A program made the position numbers and the translations under genes. Shown piece by piece: positions 4,709 to 45,715 of a DNA stretch of 64,000 nt. Source of the DNA: Nemertoderma westbladi (lineage: Eukaryota > Animalia > Xenacoelomorpha); contig JAUCBJ010000608.1 of assembly GCA_032718475.1 (NCBI GenBank), positions 1-64,000 of the forward strand, read 5' to 3'. Numbering within the stretch: position 1 is the first letter of the stretch; the number at the start of each line of letters is the position of its first letter. The notes below the pieces were generated by a model, which saw only the letters and a program-made list of their open reading frames with translations, was not told the origin of the DNA and did no database searches.

Positions 4709-4753
4709 GTTGCTGTGTTGCGTTCTGCCGTCAGCCGTTAGGCAGTGCAGCAG

Positions 4754-10772: not shown

Positions 10773-11033
10773 TCAACCCTGACGGTTACGTTCGTTGATG
10801 TACATATAAGTTACTCTTCTTGGTGAACGTGGTACCACACACCATGACAAGCACACCATGCAGTCTATTACTGCCGATGGCGACGAGTCATCTTCGCTTC
10901 CTTCGCATTTCCTCTTACGACCTCTAACGGTAAAAACTTCTTGATCGTGAACAGTTTTACGATGTTTGTTTAAATTACCGACACATGAAAATAATTTGTC
11001 ACAAATACTACAGGATGTGGATGAGTCTTCCAT
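10773..11033 (-). pseudogene. Truncated C2H2 zinc-finger ORF of the TIR element
   Basis: CSICDKLFSCVGNLNKHRKTVH fits C-x2-C-x3-F-x5-L-x2-H-x4-H and is followed by a basic NLS-like RGRKRK. The ATG lies inside the right TIR. Confidence 0.65.
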
Positions 11034-16886: not shown

Positions 16887-18338
16887 ATGCTGTCGGATTC
16901 AGGAGAGGAAGAGGATAGAGCTGTAATAGTTACTGACGAGGATATCTTACAAGAGATATCTTTATCCAACGGGATTAACTACAACAAACTCATCCACGGG
17001 CATAATGTCAGAGAGATCCACACAGTGGAACTATTCTTCTCTGGAATGCCCAGAATGATCCCGCTATCTTTATTTCCTCATCTCACTACACTGCGAATCG
17101 TCAGCCAGACAATAAAGATAATAGAACATCTCAAAGGTGTACCGAGATTGCGTGAACTTTGGTTTGCTGAATGCGAAATTACCGCCATCCAAGGGTTAAA
17201 CGATTGCGTCGAATTAATCCGGCTATACCTTTACTCAAATAAAATTACAAAAATTGAAAATTTAGATAAACTAATTCTACTAGAAGTTCTTTGGTTGAAC
17301 TTTAATAAAATTAATGTCATTGAAAATGTTCAGCATCTATTTAATCTAAAGGAGTTTAATTTAGCCGAAAATTGCATAGGAACTATCGGAGATTCGTTGT
17401 TGAATTTAGAAAGTTTAGAGAATTTAAATTTATCTGGGAATCGTATATTATCCTTCAATCAGCTTTACTGTCTGGTCGCCCTTCCCAAACTCAAACAGTT
17501 GAGTCTCAGGGGCGGCCAGTACGCGCCGAACCCGGTATGTTCGCTTTGCAACTACTCAATCTACGTTCTCTACCATCTGCCGACCCTCCAACGTCTGGAT
17601 GACATTGACGTTAGCAACGGGGTCTTACAGGAGCTCTCAGAGCAAACCGTTAATAAAAAGAAAATATTTTATAACATGAAAATTAAAACTTTAAAAAATA
17701 GAACTTCTTCACAATTAATTAAGTTAGAAAAAGAGTTAGATAAACTTATTGAAGACCCTCGAACTAAAATATCAACTTTATCTTCTTTAATAAAGAGTTT
17801 AGAGCGAGAAATACGAGAGTTTGAGTCGCCACGTAAAGGAGAGGATTCGGACACTGAGGCGGACCAGGGATCAGTTCGCTCACCGGCCGCAGAGCGGCGT
17901 CACAAAGTTGGCGAGTTGATAAAACGGCGGGACCGATGGACGCGGCAGTTGCGGCGTTACCAGGACGACGCTATAGTGGCTAGGCGACGAATAGAGTCAA
18001 GGGCCCGCGGGTCGGAGCGCTGGCAGACCGTGGAGTTAGAGACGGGAGGGAACGTTCGGTTCGAGTCCGCTAGAGGGGGTAGCGACGCGGACTGGTGGGA
18101 GTCGTGCGAACGGCTGGTACAGTCGCGGTTCTGTGCGGCGGAACACGCTGGGCGAGAGGTCCGAGTTGCCAGGGTTACGAGGGTCTACAACCGCGGGGTC
18201 AGGGGCCGTTTCGATGACTATATAAACCGTGTGGTAGACGGAGGGGGGCTGGTTGGCTTGGCCGTGAAACCCAATCAGTTGAAGCGACTTATCGAGTATC
18301 TCTTCTACAGCGAGGAGGAAGGTGACTGTCTGGATGAG
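16887..18338 (+). CDS. LRRC9: LRRC9 coding exon 1 (N-terminal LRRs, LRRcap, coiled coil, start of the ART/PARP-like region)
   Basis: SDS22-like LRRs, NPVC...Y LRRcap, and the ELETGGNVRFE...WWESCERLVQSRF block that I recognise from LRRC9. Donor GAG|GTTAGT at 18338/18339, phase 0. Confidence 0.88.
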
Positions 18339-19358
18339 GTTAGTTGCTTCATTATTATTATATATTAGTTGGATTAATCCTTAATTATTGTTAGTGAATT
18401 CTTCCTAATTTAGCTTTATTGGATTTAATATTGGGGAAAAAATGTATAGAACAATTATAAAACATGGAATCAATATTGGAAGTTGAAACAAAAATATTGG
18501 TCCGGATGTCAGAACAATGGTGTAGTATGTACATCCCTTTCATGGGTTTCACTTTAACATACTTAGAATAATTAACTTATTTATACATGATATGAATAAC
18601 TCTCAGTAAATTGATGATATACATAAAAAATGCGAATTCGGCACCGCCATAGATCGAAACCAGGTCTTCTTCGGGTTTCTGAAAGATGAGAATATGAAAG
18701 ATTCTAAACAATTAGTTGATTAGTTTATCCTTAGCTTTACAGACATACATTTTATATTGCATTTCGGAACTATTCCGGAATAATTATCACGGTCGTGTTC
18801 TATAATATTTTAAAGTACATACAGTAGTTGCAAGCAGAGTTGTAGTTATATTGCAATCCAAATCAGTTTATAATTAAATAAACATTGAAAAACTTTAAAA
18901 TAAAGTTTTTTACAAGCTAATTGAAGAATTGAACAATACTCCCTAGTACCTACTAACAACAATACAATACTACCCAACTCCGTAAATAAAGGCTTTTAGA
19001 TGCTAAATTTTGTGTTTTTTTATTGTTTAGTTTTGAAATCAATAAATTTTTACTAATTATAGTAATTTTTCGGAAGAAACCATTTTCACCATTTTTACGT
19101 AAAATTTTTACGCATCTCGGCGATTTAATATCTCGTCTCAATGTGAAATTTGTAAAATGAATGGAAAGGAGCAGGTTACAGTGACATGTTTTTCTAACCA
19201 TAACAATAAACTAAAGTCAATAGAACAAGTCATACAGTTTAATTTTTATGAGTAATCAGCAGATGTAACAGATTGCGTCGAAAGTTCCCAAGCCCCCCCC
19301 CCCCCCCCCTAGTAATTAGTAATAAATAGTCCTAAGATATTGTGTTTCTATCCGTCAG

Positions 19359-20257
19359 GTCCTCATTAAAGGCGTCAACTCGTCCGTCAGGTTAACCAAC
19401 TCCGTCGATATCCCTGTCGGATGTCGGACATTCCGTCTCCTCGTCTGCAAGGTCTTCCTCGGTCGGACCATGCCGGTCTACAAGGCGGGCACGGTGACCC
19501 CCAACCTCTACCCCAACACCGAGTCGGTATTCCGGCCTCGCGACACCGGCGACCCCAGAAACGACTGCGATTGCGCGACGCGACAATGCGATTGGTTCGT
19601 CTTCAACGGGAGTCTCGTAGTTCCCGAGTATTTAGTCGATATCGAGGTGGACTCGCCGGACACTGATCCACCCTCGCACACCGGTGTTCAACCAGCGTTC
19701 ACCGGTGTTCAACCAGCGTTCAACGGGGTTCAACCAGCGTTCACCGGGGTCCAACCAGCGTTCACGCTCTCTCACAGTTGCGACGACATCAGCGCCATCC
19801 CCTCCGCCAACCCTCCCGACGATGACGTCATCGGTCTTCCACCGGAAGTCGCCACTCGACCGCGTATCGTCAACCCCACCGAGGACATCATAAAGACCCT
19901 GACCGGATGTACAAACCTCTCCAACCTAGTCGATCTCAACCTCCACAACAACGGGATCACTAAACTCAAACAGTTGCCCCAACTGGCGAAACTCAAGCGT
20001 TTGGTGTTGAGTTTCAACGAACTAACGCGACTCGATGATGTAGGAAGGATCGAATCGTTAGAGGATCTCGATATCAGCTTCAATAAACTCCTTACCGTCG
20101 ATGGGTTGAAGACGATGGCGAGATTGAAGCGTTTGGACGTCAGTTGGAACAGGTTAACGAACACCCGGGAAGATATCGCAATAATGAGGAAATATTGTAG
20201 CAATTTGGTAACTCTTTTTTTGCACGACAACCCCTGGAAGAAAGGAAATAATATTAG
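19359..20257 (+). CDS. LRRC9: LRRC9 coding exon 2
   Basis: Acceptor TTTCTATCCGTCAG|GTC, in frame with ORF 19470-20279. Encodes LLVCKVFLGR, CDCATRQCDWFVFNGSLVVPEYLVD and LRRs. Donor AG|GTTAGT, phase 2. Confidence 0.88.
19680..19763 (+). repeat. 21-bp in-frame coding tandem repeat, 4 copies (TGVQPAF)
   Basis: ACCGGTGTTCAACCAGCGTTC and its variants are repeated four times within exon 2. Confidence 0.9.
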
Positions 20258-20962
20258 GTTAGTAAATACAGTAATTTAATTATTCTATATATATATTGAC
20301 AGGACAGTGTTACTATTTACCATATTAACACTAAACTACTTTATTTTCTATTTATGTTCACCTTAAATTTATTTAGGTTTATAAAATACTTTCAGTTTCG
20401 TTTTTTATCCAGTACCGGTATATACGCTCACCGCGTTATGCTAAAATATAACATGGAAAAGTAATTTGAATACAAACTATATTTAATTAAAGAAAGTAAT
20501 AATTAGGTGCTAACAAAGCGCAAGAAAGCAAATGGTTCCGGTGGACCATGTTGAATACAACAGCTTTCTAACAATCGTGTGAAACCAGAAACTCCAATAT
20601 CGTCAACGAAAATAAGTAAAATTTTCCACAGCCTTTGTTCATAATTAGCAGTAACATACTATTTTATGAACAAAAATAATATGTTAAAAAGAATGTAGTT
20701 TATACAATCAGAGATAATTCACAACCAAAATACGGTATATTAGCCGAGCTAGTTTTTTTTAATAGTATTGGTTTATTTCCATAATCATGTTTTAAAATTA
20801 TTGTACTTGTGTTTCGCCCCTGAGGGATTGTTAGCATTAAATAAATGAAATATATATTTTTTCCTGTAAGATTTGTCCTTCTTTTTTGCTATAGACAAAA
20901 TAAGATTATTAAGTTAGTTAAAATAATTGTGATGTGAAGGAAACTGATTTATTGTTTCTCAG

Positions 20963-22401
20963 ATTGAGGGTTATTGGGAGGCTGCGCGGGTTGAAGATGG
21001 TAGACGGGATAGCTGTCACTGAGACGGAGGCCCTAGCGGCCTTACAGGTAGCCTCGGGGGCGAGAATCTCCCAGTCGATGGTGCTAAACCACGGTCGGAC
21101 GGCGGACAAACCCGTCCGGAGTCTATCCCTCGGGTGCGCCTCCCGGACACTCGATGAGTCCACGGCACCGATCCGACCCGAGGTGCGAGGTTTCGACCCC
21201 GGGTGGATGACCTCGGTGACTTCACTCCGCATAGAGAACCAACACCTCAGCAAGATATCGAATCTCGAGAAACTCGTCAACCTCCGCTGGCTCTCTCTCG
21301 ACCACAATGACATTACCAAAATCGAAGGTCTCGATAACCTCGTTGCCATAGAGGAGTTAAGTCTCTGCGACAACGCTCTCTCTCGTCTTGACGGTATCGC
21401 CAACCTCTCCAACCTCCAACGACTCCATCTCTCGGACAACCTCATCCTCGGGTTGGACTCCATCAGTGTCTCGCGTCTCGTCAGCCTCGTCCATCTCTCC
21501 CTCGAAGACAACTTCATCGAGAGTATCGACGCGGTTAGCGGCTGCCCCAACCTTGTCGAGTTGTACCTCGGCAACAACAAAGTCACCGACATCCGGAAGA
21601 TTTTCGCGCTGAAACGCCTCCGAAACATCGCGATCCTCGACCTCGGAGGCAACCCGGTCTCCGAGAACGAGAACTACCGTCTCTTCATCGTCTTCCATCT
21701 CAGGATGCTGAAAGCTTTGGATGGAGTCTCTATAGCAACAGGAGATTTATCCCGCGCGAAAGAGACTTTCGGAGGGAAACTAACGCGAGACTTTGTTCTA
21801 GAACAGCTGGGACACGAAGCGAACTTACACACCGTAGAGGAACTCGACTTTCCTAACTCCTCGATTCGGTTTATCGATCTGGAAGACGGATCGACTTTCG
21901 TTAAACTCCGGAGTATCAACCTCGAACACAATTGGTTAACGAGTCTATCCGGACTCATCCATCTCCCTAACCTACAGGTTCTCTGCCTCAACTACAATAA
22001 AATAGAGAGCATCTTAGATAAGAATTACAACGCGAACAGCGAGACTTCATTCCTACATAAACTCCAAGTGCTACACCTCGGGTACAACGGGTTGTCCAGC
22101 ATCCGGGGCCTCCAGTTGTACCGACTCCGCTCGCTCCGCTCTCTCTTCCTACAGGGCAACGAGATCGCCGAGGTTGACGGCCTGGAGGGTCTGTCCCAGC
22201 TGCAGGAGTTGATCCTAGACCGCAATAAGATCCGATCCGTTGGTTCGTTCGCCTTCAACCCCTTGAAGGATCTCATCGAACTTCATCTCGAGGAGAATCG
22301 ACTACGGGAGTTGGAGAATCTCGATTGTCTTCGGAATCTAAAACGTTTGTTCGTGTCCCAAAATCGGATACAGGATATTAGTGAGCTGGAAAGGCTGGAA
22401 G
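20963..22401 (+). CDS. LRRC9: LRRC9 coding exon 3 (two LRR blocks)
   Basis: Acceptor TTGTTTCTCAG|A completes an Arg codon in the frame of ORF 20934-22415. Donor GAAG|GTGAGT at 22401/22402, phase 1. Confidence 0.88.
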
Positions 22402-24852
22402 GTGAGTCATTCTAACTGGAAAGGCCGGAAAGTGAGTCATTCTAACTGGAAAGGCCGGAAGGTGAGTCATTCTAACTGGAAAGGCCGGAAGGTGAATCAT
22501 TCTAACTGGAAAGGCCGGAAGGTGAGTCATTCTAACTGGAAAGGCCGGAAGGTGAGTCATTCTAACTTAAATGCCGAAAGGTGATTCATTCTAACTGGAA
22601 AGGCCGGAAGGTGAGTCATTCTAACTGGAAAGGCCGGAAGGTGAGTCATTCTAACTGGAAAGGCCGGAAGGTGAGTCATTCTAACTGGAAAGGCCGGAAG
22701 GTGAGTCATTCTAACTGGAAAGGCCGGAAGGTGAGTCATTCTAACTGGAATGGCCAGAAGGTGAGTCATTCTAACTGGAAAGGCCGGAAGGTGAGTGATT
22801 CTAACTTGAATGGCCGACAGGTGAGTCATTTTAACTGGAAAGGCCGGAAGGTGTGTCATTCTAACTGGAAAGGCCGGAAGGTGAGTCATTCTAACTGGAA
22901 AGGCCGGAAGGTGAGTCATTCTAACTGGAATGGCCAGAAGGTGAGTCATTCTAACTGGAAAGGCCGGAAGGTGAGTCATTCTAACTGGAAAGGCCGGAAG
23001 GTGAGTGATTCTAACTTGAATGGCCGACAGGTGAGTCATTTTAACTGGAAAGGCCGGAAGGTGTGTCATTCTAACTGGAAAGGCCGGAAGGTGAGTCATT
23101 CTAACTGGAAAGGCCGGAAGGTGAGTCATTCTAACTTGAATGGCCTAAAGGTGAGTCATTCTAACTGGAAAGGCCGGAAGGTGAGCCATTCTAACCGGAA
23201 AGGCCGGAAGGTGAGTCATTTTAACTGGAAAGGCCGGAAGGTGAGTCATTCTAACTGGAAAGGCCGGAAGGTGAGTCATTCTTACTGGAAAGACCGGAAG
23301 GTGAGTCATTCTAACTGGAAAGCCCGGAAGGTGAGTCATTCTAACTTGAATGGCCGAAAGGTGAGTCATTCTAACTGGAAAGACCGGAAGGTGAGTCATT
23401 CTAACTGGAAAGGCCGGAAGGTGAGTCATTCTAACTGGAATGGCCGAAAGGTGAGTCATTCTAACTGGTAAGAACGGAAGGTGAGTCATTCTAACTGGAA
23501 AGGCCGGAAGATGATTCACTCTAACTGGAAAGGCCGGAAGGTGAGTCATTCTAACTGGAAAGGACGGAAGTTGAGTCATTCTAACTGGAAAGGCCGCAAG
23601 GTGAGTCATTCTAAGTGGAAAGGCCGGAAGGTGAGCCATTCTAACCGGAAAGGCCGGAAGGTGAGTCATTTTAACTGGAAAGGCCGGAAGGTGAGTCATT
23701 CTAACTGGAAAGGCCGGAAGGTGAGTCATTCTAACTGGAAAGGCCAGAAGGTGAGTCATTCTAACTGGAAAGGCCGGAAGGTGAGTCATTCTAACTGGAA
23801 AGGCCGGAAGGTGAGTCATTCTAACTTGAATGGCCGACAGGTGAGTTATTCTAACTGGAAAGGCCGGAAGGTGAGCCATTCTAACCGGAAAGGCCGGAAG
23901 GTGAGTCATTTTAACTGGAAAGGACGGAAGGTGAGTCATTCTAACTTGAATGGCCTAAAGGTGAGTCATTCTAACTGGAAAGGCCGGAAGGTGAGCCATT
24001 CTAACCGGAAAGGCCGGAAGGTGAGTCATTTTAACTGGAAAGGCCGGAAGGTGAGTCATTCTAACTGGAAAGGCCGGAAGGTGAGTCATTCTAACTGGAA
24101 AGACCGGAAGGTGAGTCATTCTAACTGGAAAGCCCGGAAGGTGAGTCATTCTAACTTGAATGGCCGAAAGGTGAGTCATTCTAACTGGAAAGACCGGAAG
24201 GTGAGTCATTCTAACTGGAAAGGCCGGAAGGTGAGTCATTCTAACTGGAATGGCCGAAAGGTGAGTCATTCTAACTGGTAAGAACGGAAGGTGAGTCATT
24301 CTAACTGGAAAGGCCGGAAGATGAGTCACTCTAACTGGAAAGGCCGGAAGGTGAGTCATTCTAACTGGAAAGGACGGAAGTTGAGTCATTCTAACTGGAA
24401 AGGCCGCAAGGTGAGTCATTCTAAGTGGAAAGGCCGGAAGGTGAGTCATTCTAACTGGAAAGGACGGAAGGTGTGTCATTCTAACTGGATAGGCCGGAAG
24501 GTGAGTCATTCTAACTGGAAAGGCCGGAAGGTGAGTCATTCTAACTGGAAAGGGCGGAAGGTGAGTCATTCTAACTGGATAGGCCGGAAGTTGAGTCATT
24601 CTAACTGGAAAGGCCGCAAGGTGAGTCATTCTAAGTGGAAAGGCCGGAAGGTGAGTCATTCTAACTGGAAAGGACGGAAGGTGTGTCATTCTAACTGGAA
24701 AGGCCTGAAGGTGAGTCATTCTAACTGGGAAGGACGGAATGTGAGTCATTCTATCTGGAAAGGCCGCAAGGTGAGTCATTATAAGTGGAAAGGCCGGAAG
24801 GTGTGTCATTCTAACTGGAAAGGCCGGAAGGTGAGTCATTCGAACTGGAAAG
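22386..24852 (+). repeat. 30-bp tandem array (about 82 units) spanning the LRRC9 exon 3 splice donor
   Basis: The unit CTGGAAAGGCCGGAAG|GTGAGTCATTCTAA equals the last 16 nt of the exon plus the first 14 nt of the intron. Confidence 0.97.
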
Positions 24853-25012
24853 ATCGATAATATATGTCTACATATATGTATATACATGTATATACATATA
24901 TGATAATACATGTTTGAAATATATTTTGTCCCTTATCGCGACAAATGGCTTCTTTTGATTCGTTGACGTTTATAATATACAGGAGTTGCCATACATTGCA
25001 TTATCTGGTGCG

Positions 25013-25150
25013 TGTGGGTTGTTTTACCTATGGATAGTTTTAACTTATATGTTGTGTGGGTTGTTTTACCTATGGATGGTTTTAACTAATATGTTGTGTG
25101 GGTTGTTTTACCTATGGATGGTTTTAACTTATATTTTGTGTGGGTTGTTC
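25013..25150 (+). repeat. 42-bp tandem repeat, about 3.3 copies, in LRRC9 intron 3
   Basis: TGTGGGTTGTTTTACCTATGGATGGTTTTAACTTATATGTTG recurs. Confidence 0.85.
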
Positions 25151-25744
25151 TGGTATACCATATCTTATAAACGGACGGGACTGACATACAAGTCTAGAAC
25201 TCCATCTTGAATAATTATTGTTAATTTTTTTTTTATTGTGGTATGTGTTGTTTTGCTCTATGGTATTGATCGTTATTTCTACCTCTTTTTGGTTTATATT
25301 GGGTTTTCTGGGGCGCTGAATGCTATAAAACATGTTGTAGGTAGGGTCACTCAGGTCTGCGTAGGGTTACTTTTCGGCCCCACCTCAATGGCGAAAATAA
25401 CTAACTTGTAATTGTCGTGCAGCACCGATTCCCGTTAAGAAGCCTAACCAAAATTTAAACCGTTGGAAAATGAAAAATGTAACCATTGAATTCAACATTC
25501 AGGAAAACCTAGTAGTTGACATTATTATCGACCAATTCTGGTATTTATTTTTTGTTTTTTTCGTATGCGAAAAAGCTATCCAGGAGCTTTTTGGTAAAAT
25601 TCATACATCTTTATTGAATTTCGAAGGGCAGGTTGTCAAAATGACCCCCCCCCCCCCCCGAGTGGTTTCCGTATGTAATGGATAATGTAAATATTTATTG
25701 TATCACAACAGTTTTCTGTTCGACCTAATCGTTAATGCTAAATA

Positions 25745-26387
25745 TCTGTAACTCTGTATTGCAGGTCTTCCCAGTCTCACGGAAGTGTCTTTAGTTAACA
25801 ACCCAGTTTCTGTAACTCTGTATTGCAGGTCTTCCCAGTCTCACGGAAGTGTCTTTAGTTAACAACCCAGTTTCTGTAACTCTGTATTGCAGGTCTTCCC
25901 AGTCTCACGGAAGTGTCTTTAGTTAACAACCCAGTTTCTGTAACTCTGTATTGCAGGTCTTCCCAGTCTCACGGAAGTGTCTTTAGTTAACAACCCAGTT
26001 TCTGTAACTCTGTATTGCAGGTCTTCCCAGTCTCACGGAAGTGTCTTTAGTTAACAACCCAGTTTCTGTAACTCTGTATTGCAGGTCTTCCCAGTCTCAC
26101 GGAAGTGTCTTTAGTTAACAACCCAGTTTCTGTAACTCTGTATTGCAGGTCTTCCCAGTCTCACGGAAGTGTCTTTAGTTAACAACCCAGTTTCTGTAAC
26201 TCTGTATTGCAGGTCTTCCCAGTCTCACGGAAGTGTCTTTAGTTAACAACCCAGTTTCTGTAACTCTGTATTGCAGGTCTTCCCAGTCTCACGGAAGTGT
26301 CTTTAGTTAACAACCCAGTTTCTGTAACTCTGTATTGCAGGTCTTCCCAGTCTCACGGAAGTGTCTTTAGTTAACAACCCAGTTTCT
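25745..26387 (+). repeat. 64-bp tandem array (10 apparently identical units) spanning the LRRC9 exon 4 splice acceptor
   Basis: The unit TCTGTAACTCTGTATTGCAG|GTCTTCCCAGTCTCACGGAAGTGTCTTTAGTTAACAACCCAGTT equals 20 nt of intron plus 44 nt of exon. Units start at 25745+64n. Confidence 0.97.
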
Positions 26388-26822
26388 CGTCGAATGGTCC
26401 ATAGACCTATCCTTGTGTTCAGGATTCCTCAACTGAAAATATTAGACGGAATAGTTATTTCCGAAGAGGAACGCCAGAGGGCGCAACTTTATTTCTCGGA
26501 GCAAAACGTCGGCCCCTCCTTTGAATCCCCTCCACCTTCGTTGCCAGGGTTACAACACCAGCAGCATCATTCAACCTCCAACCCCTCGCACAACCAACCA
26601 ATCAGAGTGACCAGCGTGCAACTAGGTTCCCAACCGGGCACTCATTGGCCAGCGGCGTCGGGGCCAATTAACCGCAATCTGATTGGCTACCCGCAGTCCA
26701 CCCAGGCCTTCTATCTCAACCTCCCGCGTACTGGCAGGGATGCGAGTTCTAAAAATAACCACGTGAATCATTACGAACCCGGAACAGAGATACAGAGAAA
26801 CCAGAGACCGCGTAAATATTAA
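26341..26822 (+). CDS. LRRC9: LRRC9 terminal coding exon 4
   Basis: The phase-1 join gives ...ERLE-G-LPSLTEVSLVNNPVSRRMVHRPILVFRIPQLKILDG (final LRR plus LRRcap). Total CDS is 4272 nt, i.e. 1423 aa plus stop. AATAAA lies near 26936. Confidence 0.87.
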
Positions 26823-27544
26823 TTTTTAATACTGTATCTGCAATTTATTTTTATTAAATTAACTAATTTTTTTTAATACTACAAAGTTTTTTTATTTGAT
26901 ATTTTCTTATTTACAAAAATGAATTAATTTCAATTAATAAAATTTATTTAATTTAGCATTAAGTTAATATAATAATTCATATGCAAATACTATTTTTTAT
27001 TTATTTGTGTGGAATTAATTTTGCACTACCAAATCGCCAGGCCGACATATTTTCTAACTTTATATCGCAGTGCGACATTATTTCTCAGTATGTCCGTCCC
27101 TACGCGTTTACTATGTATTTTCAGTATATCCAATATATCCAGTATGTCACCGCGTTATTATTAGGTTGTTCTAGAAAGTGTAAGTGCATAACTACTAATA
27201 ATTCCTCACAAATAAATAAGATTAGATTATTATTGCCTTCGTCATGTACAATTCAAATTAATAATAATATTGTAAGTAATAAATATTACTGTTTTGCTAA
27301 AGTTTGTTCCGACTTCTTCTTAAAGTTATTATTCACACATTATTCAAATATTATGTTCTGGAATGGTTTTGTCGAAATTCCAATTACAATTAACTATCTC
27401 ACGGCAGTAATGGATCTTTCATAATCTTAAGCGGTGACCGGATCGGGTCTATGAGTGTTTCATTCCCCGATCACAATCCATGAAGTTTTTGCACTGGTAT
27501 AATAGACCAAGGGTAGGGCACACTTTGCACACATAGGTATACAG

Positions 27545-28663
27545 TTGGGTGTGCCGGATATCCGGATTTTGAGAAAAAAAATCCGGTTCCGGCTCCGGCC
27601 GGATTTCAATTTTTTGGCCGGATTTCAATTTCAACGAAATGTTGACAAAATTTACAATTAATGTGAATTTAACAAAAAAACATCAAAATAATTTTCTTTT
27701 AAATTGAACCAAATTTAAACATAAGCAAATACAATGCAATACAAAACAAAACAATGATTTTCATAGTTTGTATCAAATTCATTCATCTTATGAATTATGA
27801 TAAAGTCTAAAGCAGAGCTATTATTTTATGACAATCAACATGCTGAGCTGACTGACTACTTTTTACCAAGAATATTTGTGTTTGGTTGGCTCACTAACAG
27901 TTAATATATAATAAATAGTACATGATGCCCATATACTAATCATAACTACTGTAATCAATAATTATTATAGTTTCCCAGCGCGCAAGCTTTGATGTTAGCT
28001 CCAGGTATTGTTATAAATTGAGATTAAGCTACAACCGTGAATGACCTGTTTATATATTCGACAGGCAATTTAGAAACTCTTAGTAAATCCAATTTAACTC
28101 AGAAAGTATAAAAAACTACAGCAATTGTTACTTCGTTCTATTTTTCAATTTGCAATTTATTTATCAAATCAATCCATTACGGTATATCAAATCGTCGTAG
28201 GTTATGGTACAAAAATATTAGTTTATCTTCGCGATCAGGAAGTAGACGAGAGCGTTTCTCATCAAATACATTACCAACCTCTACAAATATTCGCTCGGAA
28301 TAAATTGAAGACGCTGCACGCTGGTGATACTAAATATATGTACAAGTATTTGTAAATTAGGAAACGCTCTTCTCGTCCCGTTTAGTTAGGATAATTGACA
28401 TACATATCTACTTCTAAATTCATAATATTATAAAGTCAAATTCCTTATCATGACCTTGTTGATCATGATCCAGCACGTTATCTATCGACGCAGTACCTAA
28501 CGCCCAAAGGATCATATGACGTGGTACCCTCCCTCCCTCCAGTTCTGTTCATGCATAAAGGTACCATACAGCCGATTCAAGTAAAAAAGTAGTCGTATAT
28601 AAAAAATCCAGCTTTGGCCGGCTGGTTTGAAAGTTTGAAAATAGTCAATCCGGCACATCCCTA
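27545..28663. mobile_element. Possible hAT-like MITE
   Basis: Imperfect TIRs (TTGGGTGTGCCGGAT... / ...ATCCGGCACATCCCTA) with subterminal CCGGA repeats. The TSD is not clean. Confidence 0.45.
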
Positions 28664-28679
28664 GTATAGGCCTTGCCTA

Positions 28680-29370
28680 CATAAAGTAAGGCAGGTATGG
28701 CAGCCTAAATAGGTCTTTAAAATACCTGAGTGTTTAAAGCTCATCTATCCCATCATATTAGACATGTACCGAACAACAAGAGTCCCACAAGAAATGAAAA
28801 CAAATAAGTTGGTGCCAGTTCCCAAGAAGGGCAACCTAACACTCTATGGTTCTTTTCGGGGAATCTCATTGATCTCGATTGCTGCAAAGCTATACAATAG
28901 AATTCTATTAAATCGCATCAGGGATCCCATTGAGAGACTGCTCCGTGGAAATCAGAATGGTTTCCGTAAGGTCGTGGGACCAAGGAGCCCATTTTGGCAC
29001 TTAGAAGGATAATTGAAGAGTTATCAAAAATAAAAAAGAAAGACAGGCATCTGGCTGTTATCTTTGTTGACTTCTTCAAGGCCTTTGATTCAGTCTCTCG
29101 GTCACGTATGTTCAGCATACTTTCATTATATGGGATTCCTGATGAAATTATTGCAGCAATCAGATCAGTATACGATGGTTCGACAACATTTGTGTCTACT
29201 GTTGACGGTGACACAGAACCATTTGAAGTGTTATGGGGCGTCCCCCATTTATGGGGCGTCCCCCATTATGAACAAGAATGGTGCAAGTGTGTCTCCCACA
29301 CACTTGCACCATTCTTGTTCATAATTGTGGTTGACAATGTTCAACGCATGTCCTTAGATCATCATAATGC
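28680..29370 (+). mobile_element. Degraded RTE-type LINE reverse-transcriptase fragment
   Basis: Frameshifted pieces VPVPKKGNL...FRGISLISIAAKLYNRILLNRI...NQNGFR and IFVDFFKAFDSV...TLAPFLFIIVVD. Confidence 0.85.
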
Positions 29371-29674
29371 TTATTATTATTATTATTATTTTATTATTTA
29401 ATCACAAATGTTTAAAACAGAGGAGAAAAACATATGGTATTAAAAAACAACTAGGTTATTGCACGAGTATAAACAGGTACAAGGGAACACTTACAGTTGT
29501 CGCCCCTCAATAAGACACAGATAGAATTGGTATGACGAATATGGCACAAAATATGAAATAAAAATAAAAACAGACTCATATTAAAAAACAGACAAAATCA
29601 ATGAATCAAAAAATGATGATGGGGTGATGATAACTCCACCTACTGGCTCCAGAAGTCGAGGAAATCCTGCTGTT

Positions 29675-30105
29675 AAAAATATCGAGTGTTGAAAAATATC
29701 GAGATGAAAAATATCGAGAGTAAAAATTCGAGTGTTGAAAATATCGAGAGTAAAAATATCGAGTGTTGAAAAATATCGAGAGTAAAAATTCGAGTGTTGA
29801 AAATATCGAGAGTAAAAATATCGAGTGTTGAAAAATATCGAGAGTAAAAATATCGAGTGTTGAAAAATGTCGAGTGTTGAAAAGTATCGAGAGTAAAAAT
29901 ATCGTGAGTAAAAATATCGAGTGTTGAAAAATATCGTGTGTTGAAAAATATCGAGTGTTGAAAAATATCGAGTGTTGAAAAATATCGAGTGTTGAAAAAT
30001 ATCGAGAGTAAAAATATCGAGTGTTGAAAAATGTCGAGTGTTGAAAAGTATCGAGAGTAAAAATATCGAGAGTAAAAATATCGAGTGTTGAAAAATATCG
30101 AGTAT
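29675..30105 (+). repeat. AAAAATATCGAG(TGTTG/AGT) minisatellite with 15-17 bp units
   Basis: Directly visible. It is the same family as 38668-39240, in the opposite orientation. Confidence 0.9.
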
Positions 30106-30109
30106 GACT

Positions 30110-30392
30110 TAGTATGTCGTTCGCACGACTGAGTAAGTCGTTCGCACGAGTTACTATGTCGTTCGCACGAGTTAGTTAAGTCGTTCGCACGACTTACTTA
30201 GTAAGTCGTTCGCACGAGTTACTATGTCGTTCGCACGAGTTAGTTAAGTCGTTCGCACGACTTACCTAACTCGTGCGAACGACATCGTGCGACGTGCTTA
30301 CTCGTCTTAGTAAGTAGTTCGCACGACATACTAAGTCGTTCGCACGAGTTAGCGAAAAATTTTTTTTTCTCATGTCCCTTTAGGGGCTCCGT
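30110..30392. repeat. GTCGTTCGCACGA-based short-unit array with an inverted copy, probably the end of a non-autonomous DNA element
   Basis: About 10 copies of GTCGTTCGCACGA, including an inverted copy (TCGTGCGAACGAC near 30271). The array ends in CATGTCCCTTTAGGGGCTCCGTA. Confidence 0.6.
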
Positions 30393-30530
30393 AGTCTAAA
30401 GTTTAGCAATTTATATAATTATGAAATGTATAGTATAATCAACATTGCACTATAAACAGCACACTACACGAATTTTAGCTATGGTCGGAGATCTGACTAG
30501 ACAACTACTGTATCTTCCTTTATTATTATT

Positions 30531-30748
30531 CTAATTCTCCGCTTTTCTTGTTGTTATTTCATTGAGTTTTAGCATGGAATCTTTCTTGTGTAGTTCGATA
30601 TTTGGTTTTTGTACTAGTTGTGGGCTGTTACCAACGTCCACTACAACACACGGAACCATTGTCTCCTTGGTTCCCTTTCTGTCTCGTCGTTTATTTACAG
30701 TGTAATTACTCCGGGTTCGCTGTATCAAATCGAATCGTCTGCGTCGAC
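30531..30748 (-). CDS. Prokineticin-receptor-like GPCR, terminal exon (cytoplasmic tail)
   Basis: Acceptor CTAATTAACGCAG|GT at 30749/30748. Phase 1 matches the upstream donor and enters the frame of ORF 30531-30728 (GRRRRFDLIQRTRSNY...RKAEN*). Confidence 0.7.
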
Positions 30749-31511
30749 CTGCGTTAATTAGTTAATATAATAATAGATTCGTACATATAGCTAATTCATA
30801 ATATCGTTACCTTTTTTTTGCGAAATGACGTTTAAGACAATTTATTAGAAATCAGTTTCTAAATGTACAGTATTTTATTAATTTATTTAAAACTAGAAGT
30901 TATTATATTAAAATACTACTAGGCTGAGCTGTGAAACGTCTTTTTACGTTTTCCCTATTTGTTATTATATTTTCACGTAGCTTTTTTTGGTATTTGAAAG
31001 AGTCTGTCTCTGCAACCGACACCATAAAAACATACCGGTTGTCACCAAGTTAATGTTTTAGAAAATTATATTTTCCTTTCCATATTCTGTTATTTCGATC
31101 CCCCCCCCCCCCCCCCCCCCCCCCCCGTTTGTAAAATCTACGTCGTAAGCCGACAGCCGTACAATAATTATTGTGAACAAAATTGAAACTGTATAACTAC
31201 ATTCTTGTTTATTGATTTGGATACTACTGTAGCTCTGCTATTGCTATATGTAGTATCCAGTGCAATGTTTTTCAAACTTTGATATACGGTTTACTTTCGT
31301 TATGTGCATTGTTCATATTTTATGGAAATAATGGAAAGGAAATTATTAAATTGAATTGAATTGAATATTGATTTGGTTATGCCATTGTAACCGGTTACCT
31401 TCCCTAAACGTAAGGTACGATTTGTGGCTGTTGTCGCCTGAAAGCTTTCAGGGTAGCATTTACACACATTGAACCCTTCAGAATGCAAATGACATCATAT
31501 GCCCCACTCAT

Positions 31512-34500
31512 AGAGCCCCACTATTACAAACCTCGTTCTCTATCTCCCTGTACCAGTAACAGAGTTCCACTACTACTAACCCCATTCTCTCTCTCCCCGT
31601 ACCAGTAACAGAGCCCTACTATTTCTAACCTCGTTCTCTCTCTCCCCTTACCGGTAACAGAGCCCCACTACTACTAACCTCGTTCTCTCTCTCCGTACCA
31701 GTAACAGAGCCCCACTACTACTAACCTCGTTCTCTCTCTCCCCTTACCGGTAACAGAGCCCCACTACTACTAACCTCGTTCTCTCTCTCCGTACCAGTAA
31801 CAGAGCCCCACTACTACTAACCTCGTTCTCTCTCTCCCCGTACCAGTAACAGAGCCCCACTACTACTAACCTCGTTCTCTCTCTCCCCTTACCGGTAACA
31901 GAGCCCCACTACTACTAACCTCGTTCTCTCTCTCTCCCCGTACCAGTAACAGAGCCCCACTACTACTAACCTCGTTCTCTCTCTCCCCTTACCGGTAACA
32001 GAGCCCCACTACTACTAACCTCGTTCTCTCTCTCCGTACCAGTAACAGAGCCCCACTACTACTAACCTCGTTCTCTCTCTCCCCGTACCAGTAACAGAGC
32101 CCCACTACTACTAACCTCGTTCTCTCTCTCCCCATACCGGTAACAGAGCCCCACTACTACTAACCTCGTTCTCTCTCTCCCCGTACTGGTAACAGAGCCC
32201 CACTACTACTAACCTCGTTCTCTCTCTCTCCCCATACCAGTAACAGAGCCCCACTACTACTAACCTCGTTCTCTCTCTCTCCCCGTACCAGTAACAGAGC
32301 CCCACTACTACCAACCTCGTTCTCTCTCTCCCCGTACTGGTAACAGAGCCCCACTACTACTAACCTTGTTATCTCTCTCCCCGTACCAGTAACAGAGCCC
32401 CACTACTACTAACCTCGTTCTCTCTCTCCCCGTACCAGTAACAGAGCCCCACTACTACTAACCTCGTTCTCTCTCTCCCCTTACCAGTAACAGAGCCCCA
32501 CTACTACTAACCTCGTTCTCTCTCTCCCCATACCGGTAACAGAGCCCCACTACTACTAACCTCGTTCTCTCTCTCTCCCCGTACCAGTAACAGAGCCCCA
32601 CTACTACCAACCTCGTTCTCTCTCTCCCTGTACTGGTAACAGAGCCCCACTACTACTAACCTTGTTATCTCTCTCCCCGTACCAGTAACAGAGCCCCACT
32701 ACTACTAACCTCGTTCTCTCTCTCCGTACCGGTAACAGAGCCCCACTACTACTAACCTCGTTCTCTCTCTCTCCGTACCGGTAACAGAGCCCCACTACTA
32801 CTAACCTCGTTCTCTCTCTCCCCATACCAGTAACAGAGCCCCACTACTACTAACCTCGTTCTCTCTCTCTCCCCGTACCGGTAACAGAGCCCCACTACTA
32901 CTAACCTCGTTCTCTCTCTCTCCCCATACCAGTAACAGAGCCCCACTACTACTAACCTCGTTCTCTATCTCCCCATACCGGTAACACAGCCCCACTACTA
33001 CTAACCTCGTTATCTCTCTCCCCGTACCAGTAACAGAGCCCCACTACTACTAACCTCGTTCTCTCTCTCCCCGTACCGGTAACAGAGCCCCACTACTACT
33101 AACCTCGTTCTCTATCTCTCCCCATACCAGTAACAGAGCCCCACTACTACTAACCTCGTTCTCTCTTTCTCCCCGTACCGGTAACAGAGCCCCACTACTA
33201 CTAACCTCGTTCTCTCTCTCCCTGTACCGGTAACAGAGCCCCACTACTACTAACCTCGTTCTCTCTCTCTCCCCATACCGGTAACAGAGCCCCACTACTA
33301 CTAACCTCGTTCTCTCTCTCTCCCCGTACCGGTAACAGAGCCCCACTACTACTAACCTCGTTCTCTCTCTCCCTGTACCGGTAACAGAGCCCCACTACTA
33401 CTAACCTCGTTCTCTATCTCTCCCCATACCAGTAACAGAGCCCCACTACTACTAACCTCGTTCTCTCTCTCTCCCCGTACCAGTAACAGAGCCCCACTAC
33501 TACTAACCTCGTTCTCTCTCTCCCTGTACCGGTAACAGAGCCCCACTACTACTAACCTCGTTCTCTCTCTCTCCCCATACCAGTAACAGAGCCCCACTAC
33601 TACTAACCTCGTTCTCTCCCTCTCCGTACCGGTAACAGAGCCCCACTACTACTAACCTTGTTATCTCTCTCCCCGTACCAGTAACAGAGCCCCACTACTA
33701 CTAACCTCGTTCTCTCTCTCCCCGTACCAGTAACAGAGCCCCACTACTACTAACCTCGTTCTCTCTCTCCCCTTACCGGTAACAGAGCCCCACTACTACT
33801 AACCTCGTTCTCTCTCTCCCCATACCGGTAACAGAGCCCCACTACTACTAACCTCGTTCTCTCTCTCCCTGTACCGGTAACAGAGCCCCACTACTACTAA
33901 CCTCGTTCTCTATCTCTCCCCATACCAGTAACAGAGCCCCACTACTACTAACCTCGTTCTCTCTCTCTCCCCGTACCAGTAACAGAGCCCCACTACTACT
34001 AACCTCGTTCTCTCTCTCCCTGTACCGGTAACAGAGCCCCACTACTACTAACCTCGTTCTCTCTCTCTCCCCATACCAGTAACAGAGCCCCACTACTACT
34101 AACCTCGTTCTCTCTCTCTCCCCATACCAGTAACAGAGCCCCACTACTACTAACCTCGTTCTCTCTCTCTCCCCATACCAGTAACAGAGCCCCACTACTA
34201 CTAACCTCGTTCTCTCTCTCTCCCCGTACCGGTAACAGAGCCCCACTACTACTAACCTCGTTCTCTCTCTCCCTGTACCGGTAACAGAGCCCCACTACTA
34301 CTAACCTCGTTCTCTCTCTCTCCCCATACCAGTAACAGAGCCCCACTACTACTAACCTCGTTCTCTCTCTCTCCCCATACCAGTAACAGAGCCCCACTAC
34401 TACTAACCTCGTTCTCTCTCTCTCCCCGTACCAGTAACAGAGCCCCACTACTACTAACCTCGTTCTCTCTCTCTCCCCATACCAGTAACAGAGCCCCACT

Positions 34501-34660
34501 ACTACTAACCTCGTTATCTCTCTCCCCGTACCAGTAACAGAGCCCCACTACTACTAACCTCGTTCTCTCTCTCCCCGTACCAGTAACAGAGCCCCACTAC
34601 TACTAACCTCATTCTCTCTGTCCCCGTACCGGTAACAGTGCCCCACTACTACTAACCTCG
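31512..34660 (-). repeat. About 47-51-bp tandem array (about 63 units) beginning at, and reiterating, the GPCR TM7-exon splice donor
   Basis: Minus-strand unit CGAG|GTTAGTAGTAGTGGGGCTCTGTTACYGGTAYGGGGAGAGAGAGAA. Length variation comes from the internal (GA)n tract. Confidence 0.95.
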
Positions 34661-34775
34661 GATCATTGCCAATATGTGACTTCGATAGTTGTCATTGAGA
34701 AATATGTAAGTTAGAGTGTCGACAGTAGAATTACTCATGGCTAGCCCCTCCACCACATAGTAGGTTTGTACGCTC
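34657..34775 (-). CDS. Prokineticin-receptor-like GPCR exon (TM7 and helix 8)
   Basis: Translates SVQTYYVVEGLAMSNSTVDTLTYIFLNDNYRSHILAMIR. The YVVE..AMSNS motif resembles PROKR TM7. Acceptor TTGTTCTAG|, donor GAG|GTTAGT. Confidence 0.85.
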
Positions 34776-35152: not shown

Positions 35153-35318
35153 CGTTTGCGTTCAGTTAACGGAGAATCAGCGACATTTGCGTAGAATGCG
35201 TAGAAATAATAGGGACCCCAGAGAATCGCGAAAGCTGAACACAAAATCAGGAATAAACGCACCATTCGCTGTTTGGATTTCAACGCCTGTTTCGCTTGGT
35301 TGGCTGTCAATCGTTGGT
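35153..35318 (-). CDS. Prokineticin-receptor-like GPCR exon (ICL3 and TM6)
   Basis: Translates DQRLTANQAKQALKSKQRMVRLFLILCSAFAILWGPYYFYAFY. The AG/GT sites and phases fit the neighbouring exons. Confidence 0.85.
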
Positions 35319-35920: not shown

Positions 35921-36089
35921 CTGGAAACTTTTTGTCTCTTATCCAAAGTGTGTAACCAATCACCGAGTAACATACAATCATTAAAACCAGTGGAATTATG
36001 TATTGTAGAACAAAGAGACTGGTTTCGTATATGAACAAGGATTTCGGCCTTGGCCAGACCTCTGCACACACTGTGAAGTTTCTATCATT
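35921..36089 (-). CDS. Prokineticin-receptor-like GPCR exon (ECL2 and TM5)
   Basis: Translates NDRNFTVCAEVWPRPKSLFIYETSLFVLQYIIPLVLMIVCYSVIGYTLW. Acceptor TTTTCAG|, donor CAG|GTAAAA. Confidence 0.87.
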
Positions 36090-36778: not shown

Positions 36779-36908
36779 AGTGATTAGGTTTGTATGCGAA
36801 ATGACAGGACAGGCAAGTGCAGCTGAAAATATCCATATCAGTGCCAAGATCAGACAGACTCCTGCCCGTGGTATTCTCTGTTTCATTGGCCACATTGTAA
36901 TGTATAAC
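36779..36908 (-). CDS. Prokineticin-receptor-like GPCR exon (ICL2 and TM4); upstream exons not located in the window
   Basis: Translates (R)LYITMWPMKQRIPRAGVCLILALIWIFSAALACPVISHTNLIT. Acceptor TTTTCTTACAG|, donor ACT|GTAAGT. Confidence 0.85.
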
Positions 36909-38667: not shown

Positions 38668-39240
38668 AATATCGATATTTTTACTCTCGATATTTTTCAA
38701 CATTCTATATTTTTTTCAACACTCGATATTTTTACTCTCGATATTTTTCAACACTCGATATTTTTCAACACTCGATATTTTTCAACATTCGATATTTTTA
38801 CTCTCGATATTTTTCAACACTCGATATTTTTACTCTCGATATTTTTCAACACTCGATATTTTTACTCTCGATATTTTTACTCTCAATATTTTTACTCTCG
38901 ATATTTTTCAACACTCGATATTTTTACTCTCGATATTTTTCAACACTCGATATTTTTACTCTCGATATTTTTCAACACTCGATATTTTTACTCTCGATAT
39001 TTTTCAACACTCGATATTTTTACTCTCGATATTTTTCAACACTCGATATTTTTACTCTCTATATTTTTACTCTCGATATTTTTCAACACTCGGTATTTTT
39101 ACTCTCGATATTTTTACCCTCGATATTTTTACTCTCGATATTTTTTGAACTCTCGATATTATCGTTATTTTTCAACACTCGATGTTTTTACTCGCGTTAT
39201 TTTTACTCTCGATATTTTTCATGTCTCGATATTTTTCAAT
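38668..39240 (-). repeat. CTCGATATTTTT minisatellite (reverse complement of the 29675-30105 family)
   Basis: Directly visible mixed 15-17 bp units. Confidence 0.9.
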
Positions 39241-39356
39241 ATAACCAAATGTGCAATGCGTTTGGTCCAGATAGAGCAGTATAATAATCATAGATCTATA
39301 TCTAACCAGTAGGTGTCCATTTTAAGCACGTACCACGGTTAATTACATATGCAGTA

Positions 39357-42300
39357 TGGTATAAAATGAGTTTAATAATGTGGTATTATATAATAATAAT
39401 ATAATGTATAAAATATAAACGCAATGTCAATGAATCTAAGGTACACATTGCATAATATACATGGATGTAATAGCCCTCCACCATCTGCTTAATCCCACTA
39501 TGCAAACAATGAATACATACATTGTGATGAGGTGCTTTACACTAATATTGATGCGGCATTATTGCATACTACACCATGCCCCCCTTAAGTCTTTTTAGTT
39601 CGATATGAGCCCATTCCCCTATGAGTCCTTTAGTATCAATATCGTTTGTGAGTCATATATATTCATAACATTAGTCTATCGGGTTTTTTTTTATCACGCT
39701 TGCTGCGTCTTACATAAGTCCAAACGCCATCACCGTCGATGTCATCATGATCATTGTCGCTGTATTGCTTCTGATCGTGATCTATACTATTACCACCTTG
39801 TTGGACTACTTCCTCCTTGTTCTCTGGTTCTCTGTGGTTTTCTGGTTCTCCATCACTAAGAAGGCGAAGGAAGCGGCGGTTTCTCCAGTACTCTCGTCCA
39901 TTGTCAGCAGCAATTAGGTAACTGCGGTTCCTTGAACAATCCTTGATAATAGTACCTTTCAGGTCCCATTTCTTCGTCTGGTGGTGCTGAATTCTGACTC
40001 GGTCTCCTTGTGTGAAATTGGTTATTTCACGAGTACCTCTGTCATACAATTCCTTTGAGATTATCTGATTATGTGCGGCTTTAACATCGGCAAATTGTAT
40101 ATCATGTTCATCTGCATTTTTGAATGATGTTGCAGACGTTGTCAACTTACTTCTCAACTGCCTTCCTATGACCCGCTGAGCCGGGCTGAGACCATCGGCA
40201 CGGGGTGTGTTTCTGTATTCCAGTAACGCGTTTGCGAATTCATCTGTCGAAATGTCGCCCTTTGGACATACCTTTACAACCAAATCTTTGATACATATTA
40301 CTGCCGCTTCTGCGTATCCATTGGATTCATGGTTGTATGGTGAAGATGGTTGATGGTTAATTCCCCATTCTTGACAAAAGTTTTTAAATTCAGTTCTAAA
40401 TTGTGGCCCCCCATCCGTTGTGAGCCTATCAGGAATGCCCATATTTGTAAACCAAACTCTGAATTTCTTCTTAGTAGTATAGGTGTCAACCCCACCGTGC
40501 CCACATTCGAAAACATCAGGCCATCCTGAGTATTTATCGGTGATAACTAGATATTCTTTAGCAGCATGGGCGAAGAAATCAGCCGCTATTGATTCACCAG
40601 GCCTTGTGGGTCGCACATCAGCCATCATAGGTTCCTTCCGATTACTAGCTTTATGGACCTCGCACTCATTACACTCCGAAACTAATGTCCCTATGTCATT
40701 GCTGATCCCAGGCCAAAAGACGCACATCCGTGCCCTTCTGAGGGCTCTGTCACGCCCTTGGTGTGCTGCATGCAATTCTTTTAAAACAACTTTACGCATG
40801 GCTACGGGTATAACAATGCGATTCTCTGCATACATGACCACATTGTCAACAATTGATAGCCCATAACGAAAATTCCAATATGGTCTTAACATTTCACTAA
40901 CCATGTGTTTGGTGGGTGGAAATCCTGAAGCGATTAGCTTACGAAGTTCAAAATAAGCTGGGTCACGATTTGCCTCTTGTTTAACCTTTTCCCAGCCTAC
41001 ACCCTTGGTGTTTGTCGTGGGTGGACAGACATTTACTGTATTAAGGCTGTGTGCTGCGCTTAACAATGAGGTGTGAGCGAACTCTTCTATTTCGGTCTCA
41101 CCTTGTTCATCTTCTGTCGTTGGATGTGAAACTGGGAACCTAGAAAATGTGTCTACTACTGTATGTGTAATTCCTTGTCTCCATATAGCAGAAGGTCTGT
41201 AGCAGGCAAGCTTTTCTTTTAAACGAATGATTCGTGGTGTCTCGATTTGGTCTAATGTTTTTCCATTGATGATGGATATGAGAGGTTTATGGTCTACAAT
41301 GAGCTCAAAATGAGCCCCCTGAAGAAATAATTTGCTCTTGTGAGTGGCCCATACTACGCCAAGGAGTTCTATTTCAGTAGCTGAGTATCTCGATTCAGTT
41401 GTCGTCAATGTTCTAGAACCGCACTGCAGTAGCTTCCATATACCTGCTTTGTCTTGTTGCCATAGTGCAAATCCTAGACCTTTTGATTGGGCTGCATCGG
41501 TTTCTAACCGTAGTGGAGCATCAGGTATGAAGTTAGTGAGTACTCTAGGGGACATAAGGATCTCTATTATTGATTTAAAAGCCTTTCTTTGGTCTGCTTC
41601 CCATATAAACCGGGTCTTATGCGAGGTTAGAGCCATAAGAGGTTTTGCTGCTTGTGCCAAGTCTGGTGTGAAGGCCTGAAATTGTTGGATAAGGCCACAG
41701 AATGATCTCACATCAGTTGTTGACTTCGGCTCTGGGAAGTTTCTGAGTGCACTTGTCAGGGAAGGGTTAACACTATAACCATTTTGGTTGACAACATAAC
41801 CGCACCATTCTACTTCAGGTTTCCCAAACATGAATTTGCGCTTACTAAGCGTTATACCATTGTCATTAAAACGTTGTAAGATAGAACGCACCCTCCGTTC
41901 ATGATCATCTATGTTGGTGTCATATACGATGACATCTTCAACCACCTTCTTAAAATTATCAACGCCTTCCATGGCAGTGTCGCCTCTGCTATCGTGCTCA
42001 TCACCGGCGCTAGACAATCCCATGGGGTTTCTGAGAAATTGTTCTCTGCCCCATGGTGTGATAAAAGTAGTCATATCTCGTGCACTATCAGTAAGCGGAA
42101 CTTGCCAATACCCATGTCGTGAATCCATTGTAGTAAAAATAGTCATACCATTAGGAATTTTGGCTACTTCATTTTTGGGTACTTTCGATGGGTGCACTGG
42201 CCTTTTTACATACTTATTCAAAGCTGTGAAATCTACTGTTATTCTTGGCTCTGATGAGTTCTTTTTAGGTGTTACCACCATTGGATGTATCCAATTGGTG

Positions 42301-44877: not shown

Positions 44878-45715
44878 TAAGAATGCTGTGCCGGCTTATC
44901 GACAAAATTGCGCCGCCACAACTCCCTATCACCCATGACATTTGCTAGATCATCCGCATCTTCAAGGCCAGTGTCCTTTAAGATGCGTCTCAAGAAAGTC
45001 ATGGGCTGTTCACCATGCTTATTCACTCCATGAGGCTGCCAAAGTACAAGATTATGCACTGGCTGGTCCTCATGGCGAAAGCAATGTCATGCAAAGCGGA
45101 GGCGATTTTGTTCTAGTGTCAAGCTTGGGGGAACCAATGAGACACCTCCAATGTTATATAGTGTCTAGTTGGAGATGTGTGCATTGTACTTGACACAATG
45201 AACCCGGCGTAGCATTCTTGTGAATGTGCCATCCAGAGATTTGGTGTCCTCAGCAGTTAGAGCCAAGCATGGACTTCCATAGAGGAGTACTGAAACTACC
45301 GCTGATCTAAATAATCGGACCTTAAGTTTCCGGTTAATTCTCGGTGACTTCCAAATCCTGGAAAGCCTATTCAAGGCTGCCCATACCTTTCCCTTACGTA
45401 TTCGTAGGTACTCACCTGACTTCCGGATCCATGATCCCAGGTAACAGAAGTCGTCTACATGTTCAAGCATACCATCCAGACTGTCTGAGGACTTTCAAAG
45501 TTAACTGTCAAAATGTTGGTCTTTTTGGAGTTAATAAAAATACCAACACTAGAAGCAGCCTGTTCTAATGAGCTGAGGAGCCGTTGGGCTCCCTCTAGTG
45601 ATTTTGAGAGTACTCTTAAGTCATCAGCAAAGTCTAGATCAGTTAGGTACTTAGAAGGATTTCCCCGACTTCTTGAGCTAGTCGGTAAGGTAGAGTTACC
45701 ATCACCCCATCATCA
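44878..45715 (-). mobile_element. 5'-truncated RTE-type LINE (end of RT plus C-terminal region)
   Basis: Minus-strand pieces YLTDLDFADDL, VDDFCYLGSWI and LKVRLFRSAVVSVLLYGS, with frameshifts. Confidence 0.88.

Follow-up and report, generated by a model that had tools for sequence, protein, structure and literature searches.

Three tandem arrays in the window, the whole 64-kb stretch of DNA that was analysed, are built from units that span exon-intron boundaries of two genes, and this cluster consists of real, well-formed minisatellites of the mirage type. Arrays A1 and A2 occupy opposite ends of intron 3 of an LRRC9 gene, and array A3 lies at the predicted donor of the last coding intron of a G protein-coupled receptor (GPCR) gene on the other strand (Table 1). 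Most likely, the arrays are ordinary minisatellites that were seeded at an exon edge. We propose that they are probably three independent mirages, each of which began at such an edge, expanded, and was tolerated because the splice site adjoining the exon would be the only one in use.

Table 1. Exons and boundary-spanning arrays mapped in the window
Feature	Position	Strand	Description and evidence
LRRC9 coding exon 1	16887..18338	+	Spliced-model alignment with animal LRRC9
LRRC9 coding exon 2	19359..20257	+	Contains an in-frame 21-bp x4 repeat at 19679-19765
LRRC9 coding exon 3	20963..22401	+	Predicted true donor AAG|GTGAGT at its end; 737 homologs, best named match LRRC9
Array A1	22386..24852	+	Donor-side; 82 units of 30 bp, each with 16 exon and 14 intron bases; the real exon end is copy 1
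Array A2	25745..26387	+	Acceptor-side; ten identical 64-bp units, each with 20 intron and 44 exon bases
LRRC9 last coding exon	26341..26822	+	Residues 1-54 match Pfam LRR_9 (E 1.9e-06); homolog alignment
GPCR putative last coding exon (71-residue tail)	30531..30748	-	In frame with the A3 donor; composition
Array A3	31512..34660	-	Donor-side; 47/49/51-bp unit x64; only 3-4 exon bases per unit
GPCR TM7/helix-8 exon	34657..34775	-	Donor GAG|GTTAGT at its end; profile of 27 homologs (E 4.9e-05); tblastn
GPCR TM6 exon	35153..35318	-	Pfam 7tm_1 (E 0.0003)
GPCR ECL2/TM5 exon	35921..36089	-	Pfam 7tm_1 (E 1.3e-05); neuropeptide-receptor-like named matches
GPCR TM4 exon	36779..36908	-	Profile match (E 0.015); frame continuity

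A1, A2 and A3 are the three longest tandem arrays of the window (Tandem Repeats Finder [TRF]), a firmer statement than that of a first-pass annotation, which had placed them among the longest. In the TRF run on the window, the periods are 30 for A1 (82.3 copies, 91% matches), 64 for A2 (10.0 copies, 100% matches) and 49 for A3 (63.5 copies, 93% matches). All three therefore consist of head-to-tail units of minisatellite size, and each has an end unit that carries a splice site. The variation in unit length within A3 is due to a run of GA dinucleotides. Similarity between the units of different arrays is at the level of shuffled sequence (in the three comparisons, 118, 340 and 231 shuffles out of 500 reach the observed score), which confirms that the arrays are unrelated and leads us to reject a common origin of their units. 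No unit has a match elsewhere in the 64-kb window, and an origin as a dispersed satellite or a transposon-derived repeat was set aside because, within the window, no unit was found away from its own junction. G-quadruplex seeding as a shared cause was also rejected, as the mean G4Hunter-type scores of the three units (0.32, -0.19 and 0.83) do not reach the usual threshold of about 1.2. Repeats are common across the window, which has 33 merged arrays, one of them a coding 21-mer in LRRC9.

The four-exon spliced model of LRRC9 encodes 1423 amino acids, of which about 1350 can be aligned to animal LRRC9 proteins at 41-44% identity. A search with exon 3 retrieved 737 proteins, with all named relatives at 52% identity or less. 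At junction 3, the model aligns without gaps to all 10 homologs aligned, and it does so only if donor 1 of A1 is joined to acceptor 10 of A2. Candidate poly(A) signals follow the last exon at 26853 and 26936. In a quick LRRC9 tree (37 rows), the window groups with three unnamed proteins (SH-aLRT 99) on a branch that is long and odd in composition. Three related loci were found, the best 46% identical and one (L003) a weak LRR match; in two of them, L001 and L002, no intron or array was found at junction 3.

The minus-strand gene is identified by its sequence as a rhodopsin-class GPCR of neuropeptide type. Six of the eight matches that were looked up are named as NPY-, RYamide-, QRFP- or PrRP-receptor-like. 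Its four exons spanning TM4 to helix 8 can be spliced in frame, and they are followed by the putative tail exon, whose GC content is 0.41 (flanks, 0.32-0.33). Its codon score exceeds those of all 280 overlapping intron pieces examined, yet two true exons score inside the intron range. Upstream of the TM4 exon, neither tblastn nor the 27-sequence profile found any 5' exons. Together, six LRRC9 and nine GPCR splice sites were mapped. This again gives 15, of which, as had been claimed, three lie in arrays, namely both ends of LRRC9 intron 3 and the donor predicted for the last GPCR intron.

The receptor could instead end at the in-frame stop located immediately after the TM7 exon. A3 would then be a minisatellite of the 3' UTR, and the number of junction arrays would drop to two, both in one intron. 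Such an ending would fit the lack of any Pfam or homolog match for the proposed tail, the short tails of some homologs, and the fact that the A3 unit has only 3-4 bases in common with the exon. However, donors of the same type (GAG/TAG|GTTAGT) open LRRC9 introns 1 and 2, and the 71-codon exon is in frame and coding-like in composition, and the 763 unique bases before it are a normal length for an intron. Moreover, among 101 candidate acceptors scanned for the last GPCR intron, the four with longer open frames sit in repeat or LINE-like sequence. We therefore regard the 3' UTR placement as unlikely and treat A3 as a probable donor-side array.

The first-pass annotation had described every unit as carrying the gene's own splice site with flanking exon bases. 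This description applies to A1 and A2, whose units include 16 and 44 exon bases, respectively, at a junction supported by homologs; it is too generous for A3, whose unit takes in only those 3-4 exon bases and spans a boundary of a predicted intron. The splice signals are largely intact throughout the arrays. GT is kept in 77 of the 82 copies of A1, and in 61 of the 82 the 9-mer is identical to the AAG|GTGAGT of the predicted true donor. All 10 acceptors of A2 are identical, with AG kept. Every one of the 64 donor-like sites of A3 retains GT (56 are identical to GAG|GTTAGT).

Decoy copies in all three arrays lead to early stops. Each of the 81 downstream donors of A1 results in a protein of 1267 amino acids instead of 1423, and each of the nine upstream acceptors of A2 results in one of 1295, while copy 10 (exon start 26341) alone continues into the conserved C-terminus. 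In A3, 61 of the 63 downstream donors were tested, and with every one of them the protein ends a single residue beyond the junction. Judged by frame and homology, the end unit adjoining unique exon sequence would thus be the authentic site, and the claim that only this copy gives the full-length protein is upheld. Protein homology makes this choice of copy likely. The premature stop at donor decoys arises because an in-frame stop lies inside the first unit, so that the product is the same as that of intron retention; truncation by donor decoys is uninformative on design.

We suggest that each array would have started from one short tandem duplication across an exon-intron edge. The start and the end of the array overlap by 3 bases in A2 and by 8 bases in A1, as would be expected of microhomology-guided duplication or of later trimming. 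Expansion may then have proceeded by unequal exchange or slippage, to which a 27-unit block duplicated inside A1 points. In A1, the coding copy and the 81 decoys differ consistently at one position, where the exon has the leucine codon CTG and all decoys have CC-. This difference and the duplicated block suggest that the array turns over while selection holds the coding copy. Under concerted evolution inside an array, edge copies would be left out; in A3 the greatest divergence is found at the end copies (8, 9 and 8), but inner copies reach 8, and A2 is uniform. A duplication that leaves one outer site intact would cost no protein, and the arrays could thus persist as near-neutral intron filler.

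The intact decoys could also mean that the arrays have a regulatory function or leak, with decoy use yielding truncated products in proportion to copy number, i.e., LRRC9 of 1267 or 1295 amino acids whose last repeat block is uncapped, or a GPCR lacking its tail. In humans, the length of the ABCA7 VNTR alters splicing, according to the accessible text of PMC5954066, and contig depths (below) hint weakly at A2 length variation between samples. Several observations make such a role quite improbable. Selection has left no sign of preserving the A1 decoy donors: counted per position, nine distinct changes fall on the nine donor positions and 26 on the other 21, and the decoy sites have been neither purged nor preserved. 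Because these changes are neither concentrated in the donor motif nor excluded from it, they fit neutrality. Additionally, each array gives one product whichever decoy is used, so that more copies do not mean more isoforms, and the amphioxus mirages are reported without splicing disturbance in the accessible parts of PMC3087553 and PMC3902484.

If the arrays are near-neutral, the splicing machinery would have to settle on the exon-adjoining copy. For the donors of A1 and A3, the most upstream site would win, as in human F7. The first-pass annotation had invoked strict exon definition, which is unneeded for the two donor arrays given the upstream-first choice described for F7 in the available part of PMC1557585, and which is still a candidate for the acceptor array. 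In A2, the last copy may win via the full terminal exon and the poly(A) signals downstream. This explanation is weaker than the one for donors, as local signals do not favor copy 10: its AG-free zone is 20 bases long with one branch-like motif, compared with 51 bases and two such motifs in copy 1. Since copy 1 is locally better, a simple first-AG scan would choose the wrong copy. The 100% identity of the A2 copies indicates that the array is recent, and conservation of the C-terminus would consequently reflect past rather than present use of copy 10. Recursive splicing via the GT that opens the exon part of A2 is thought unlikely, because GTCTTC is a poor fit to the donor consensus. With ten sequence-identical acceptors, of which the locally better-looking first one leads to a truncated protein, A2 is a ready minigene that would test terminal-exon definition against first-come acceptor choice.

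Identity over all 10 copies of A2 is also what an assembly artefact could produce. To evaluate A2 in independent DNA, its right edge was compared with contigs from four DNA-type runs of three studies that have exons 2-3. Run X2 has one contig for the entry from unique intron sequence, one for the shared core and another for the copy-to-copy joint, and run X3 has a single contig with core and joint; there are no differing letters in either run. Support hence comes from two of the four runs and two of the three studies, one of which may be the source of the assembly. At least two A2 copies exist in contigs of two studies, and A2 is real DNA. This comparison covers A2 alone. In the other two arrays, the 36 unit variants of A1, with block duplications nested in one another, and the graded variants of A3 argue against an artefact. 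An artefactual origin of the arrays is very improbable. The depths of the X2 contigs (193.8 for the core, 148.9 for the joint and 37 for the entry) would be compatible with 4-5 copies of A2 rather than 10, but depth does not amount to a copy number; the length of A2 may vary between samples.

The arrangement is not new. In the accessible text of PMC3087553 and PMC3902484, mirages of amphioxus are tandem repeats across exon-intron boundaries, on the donor and the acceptor side and variable in length. They are described in Adh3, BflGb6, BflGb9, TnC and PGBD5 with normal splicing, and are suggested to be a general cephalochordate feature and a route to intron gain. Judged by sequence, A1-A3 have the structural features of a mirage: boundary-spanning units on both sides, several per gene or locus, many intact signals, the authentic site at the exon-adjoining end, and units of 30, 49 and 64 bp within the 10-160 bp reported for amphioxus. 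The acceptor-side mirage of BflGb6, with six and three units in two haplotypes and normal RT-PCR products (PMC3087553, accessible part), has the same layout as A2. The host differs, as it is not a lancelet: its LRRC9 shares 42.7% identity with that of Branchiostoma and sits elsewhere in the quick tree. A3 and A1, with 64-82 copies, also exceed the 2-7 copies given for amphioxus in the text available, and here unrelated arrays lie at both ends of one intron, in contrast to the amphioxus mirages as described there.

Human precedents exist as well. Donor-side cases discussed in the available part of PMC1557585 are F7, CBS (IVS13), 6-16, lamin B2 and PDGF. The 37-bp VNTR of F7 intron 7 resembles A3 in having four exon bases in its unit, and it resembles both donor arrays in that the first unit spans the donor, identical pseudo-sites lie downstream, and the upstream site is used. 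Mutagenesis of this VNTR demonstrated the upstream-first choice. Cases of the F7 type differ from the arrays described here in being on the donor side only, in having 5-25 pseudo-sites, and in that splicing was measured. In the 25-bp VNTR of ABCA7 intron 18, each of about 12-427 units starts with a donor, and expansion enlarges the intron up to eightfold (PMC5954066, accessible part). That VNTR is polymorphic and shifts splicing; A1-A3, as opposed to the human cases, are known from sequence alone. Some human cases are leaky: in CBS, 6-16 and ABCA7, a proportion of splicing goes to the next decoy or the next two (PMC5954066 and PMC1557585, parts available). A1-A3 thus add a clean example of a described oddity, and they are a warning that gene predictors and assemblers may err at such junctions.

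In this lineage, exon-intron edges may themselves be mutational hotspots, where short duplications occur or later expand more readily; recombination, the change in composition across the edge, or repair from cDNA are candidate causes. Such a bias would add to, and not exclude, the seeding of ordinary minisatellites proposed above. To evaluate it, one unit per merged array was placed uniformly at random in the collapsed window. Three of the 33 merged arrays overlap junctions, compared with 0.36 expected (P ~0.005). When the null model is restricted to introns, three of the five arrays that lie in a mapped intron or touch one do so, compared with 0.58 expected (P = 0.012), which lowers the excess without removing it. 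For arrays with a period of at least 10 and at least 10 copies, the ratio is three of six, compared with 0.06 expected (P = 2e-05). These P values come from one window that was picked for its pattern in a very large scan, with cut-offs set afterwards, and do not transfer to the genome. The uniform-placement null under-predicts junction arrays, and pure tolerance may be an incomplete account.

In favor of a junction bias, all three of the window's longest arrays are at junctions, their units are richer in GC (0.44-0.51) than non-array intron sequence (0.27-0.35), and the intron-poor LRRC9, with three introns, hints at past cDNA-mediated intron loss. A general phenomenon is also suspected by the amphioxus authors (PMC3087553, accessible part). 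On the other hand, the other 12 of the 15 mapped junctions are without an array, and GPCR exons beyond those mapped would raise the expectation. Of the junction ends of the seven mapped introns, 11 were searched for near-copies, with one single match. We hold a junction-biased birth of arrays to be possible but somewhat doubtful. The recurrent process put forward by the first-pass annotation is accordingly plausible and already proposed for amphioxus in that accessible text, but the window statistic lends it no genome-wide support. In the literature searched, which covered few subscription papers, we found no genome-wide test of array enrichment at splice junctions, and the accessible portions of PMC12783039 and PMC10078293 contain nothing on junction-spanning arrays.

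A broader and rather unlikely conjecture is that long minisatellites, here and in other invertebrates, arise or expand preferentially at exon-intron edges, that junction duplication is a main driver of intron growth, and that the ten A2 acceptors are a natural test of a spliceosome skipping nine perfect 3' splice sites. If true, genome-wide enrichment at junctions would be a mutational route to intron growth and, via the model given in the available part of PMC3087553, to intron gain. Within the window, the suggestion that the arrays are a source of intron expansion is borne out. The two array-bearing introns, LRRC9 intron 3 and the last GPCR intron, are 3939 and 3908 bases long, and the other five mapped introns are 377-1020 bases long. 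If the extra copies are taken away, the array-bearing introns shrink to about 930 and 760 bases. Their growth is thus explained by the arrays, which lengthen them about fourfold.

Tandem repeats in the window also occur outside the three arrays at splice junctions. In contrast to those arrays, a 15/17/32-bp repeat family is dispersed and lies away from any junction, and its two occurrences are ~89% alike. The in-frame repeat in exon 2 of LRRC9 encodes a 7-residue protein repeat; LRRC9 thus also carries a purely exonic minisatellite.

Vertebrate LRRC9 is intron-rich. The gene in the window (16887-26822) has only three coding introns, with exons of 0.5 to 1.45 kb, and its distant relative at locus L002 (3-4031) is readable in one frame across query residues 57-1366. 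Among the seven mapped introns of LRRC9 and the GPCR gene, three (at 18339, 20258, and 34656) open with GTTAGT, which has T at +3; this intron start may be a lineage habit.

The retrotransposon, putatively Ty3/Gypsy by its motifs, has terminal repeats of 221 bases each that are 100% identical to each other and a single open frame of 1552 codons. It is a very recent insertion, perhaps into an intron. Its position is upstream of the TM4 exon of the GPCR gene.

The gag-/protease-like frame (1479 codons), possibly BEL/Pao-like, ends with no clear reverse transcriptase before its end. The LINE-like fragments resemble reverse transcriptase and ORF1 of such elements; one of them lies between the convergent LRRC9 and GPCR genes. 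The inverted-repeat arms enclose ~1 kb, including a run of ATCCC x30, and the element appears to be a non-autonomous DNA transposon of young age.

Mobile-element and repeat features in the window, with the basis for each
Feature	Positions	Orientation or context	Basis
LINE-like fragments	1-4816, 28713-29401, 45165-45709, 47669-47923		Resemblance to LINE reverse transcriptase and ORF1
Retrotransposon with two terminal repeats	39356-44628	Open frame on minus strand	Repeat identity and open frame
gag-/protease-like open frame	57283-61722		Motifs in open frame
196-base inverted repeat	9861-10056 and 11016-11211		99.5% identity of arms
15/17/32-bp repeat family	29671-30103 and 38672-39239	Opposite orientations	Tandem-repeat scan and comparison
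21-bp x4 coding repeat	19679-19765	LRRC9 exon 2, in frame
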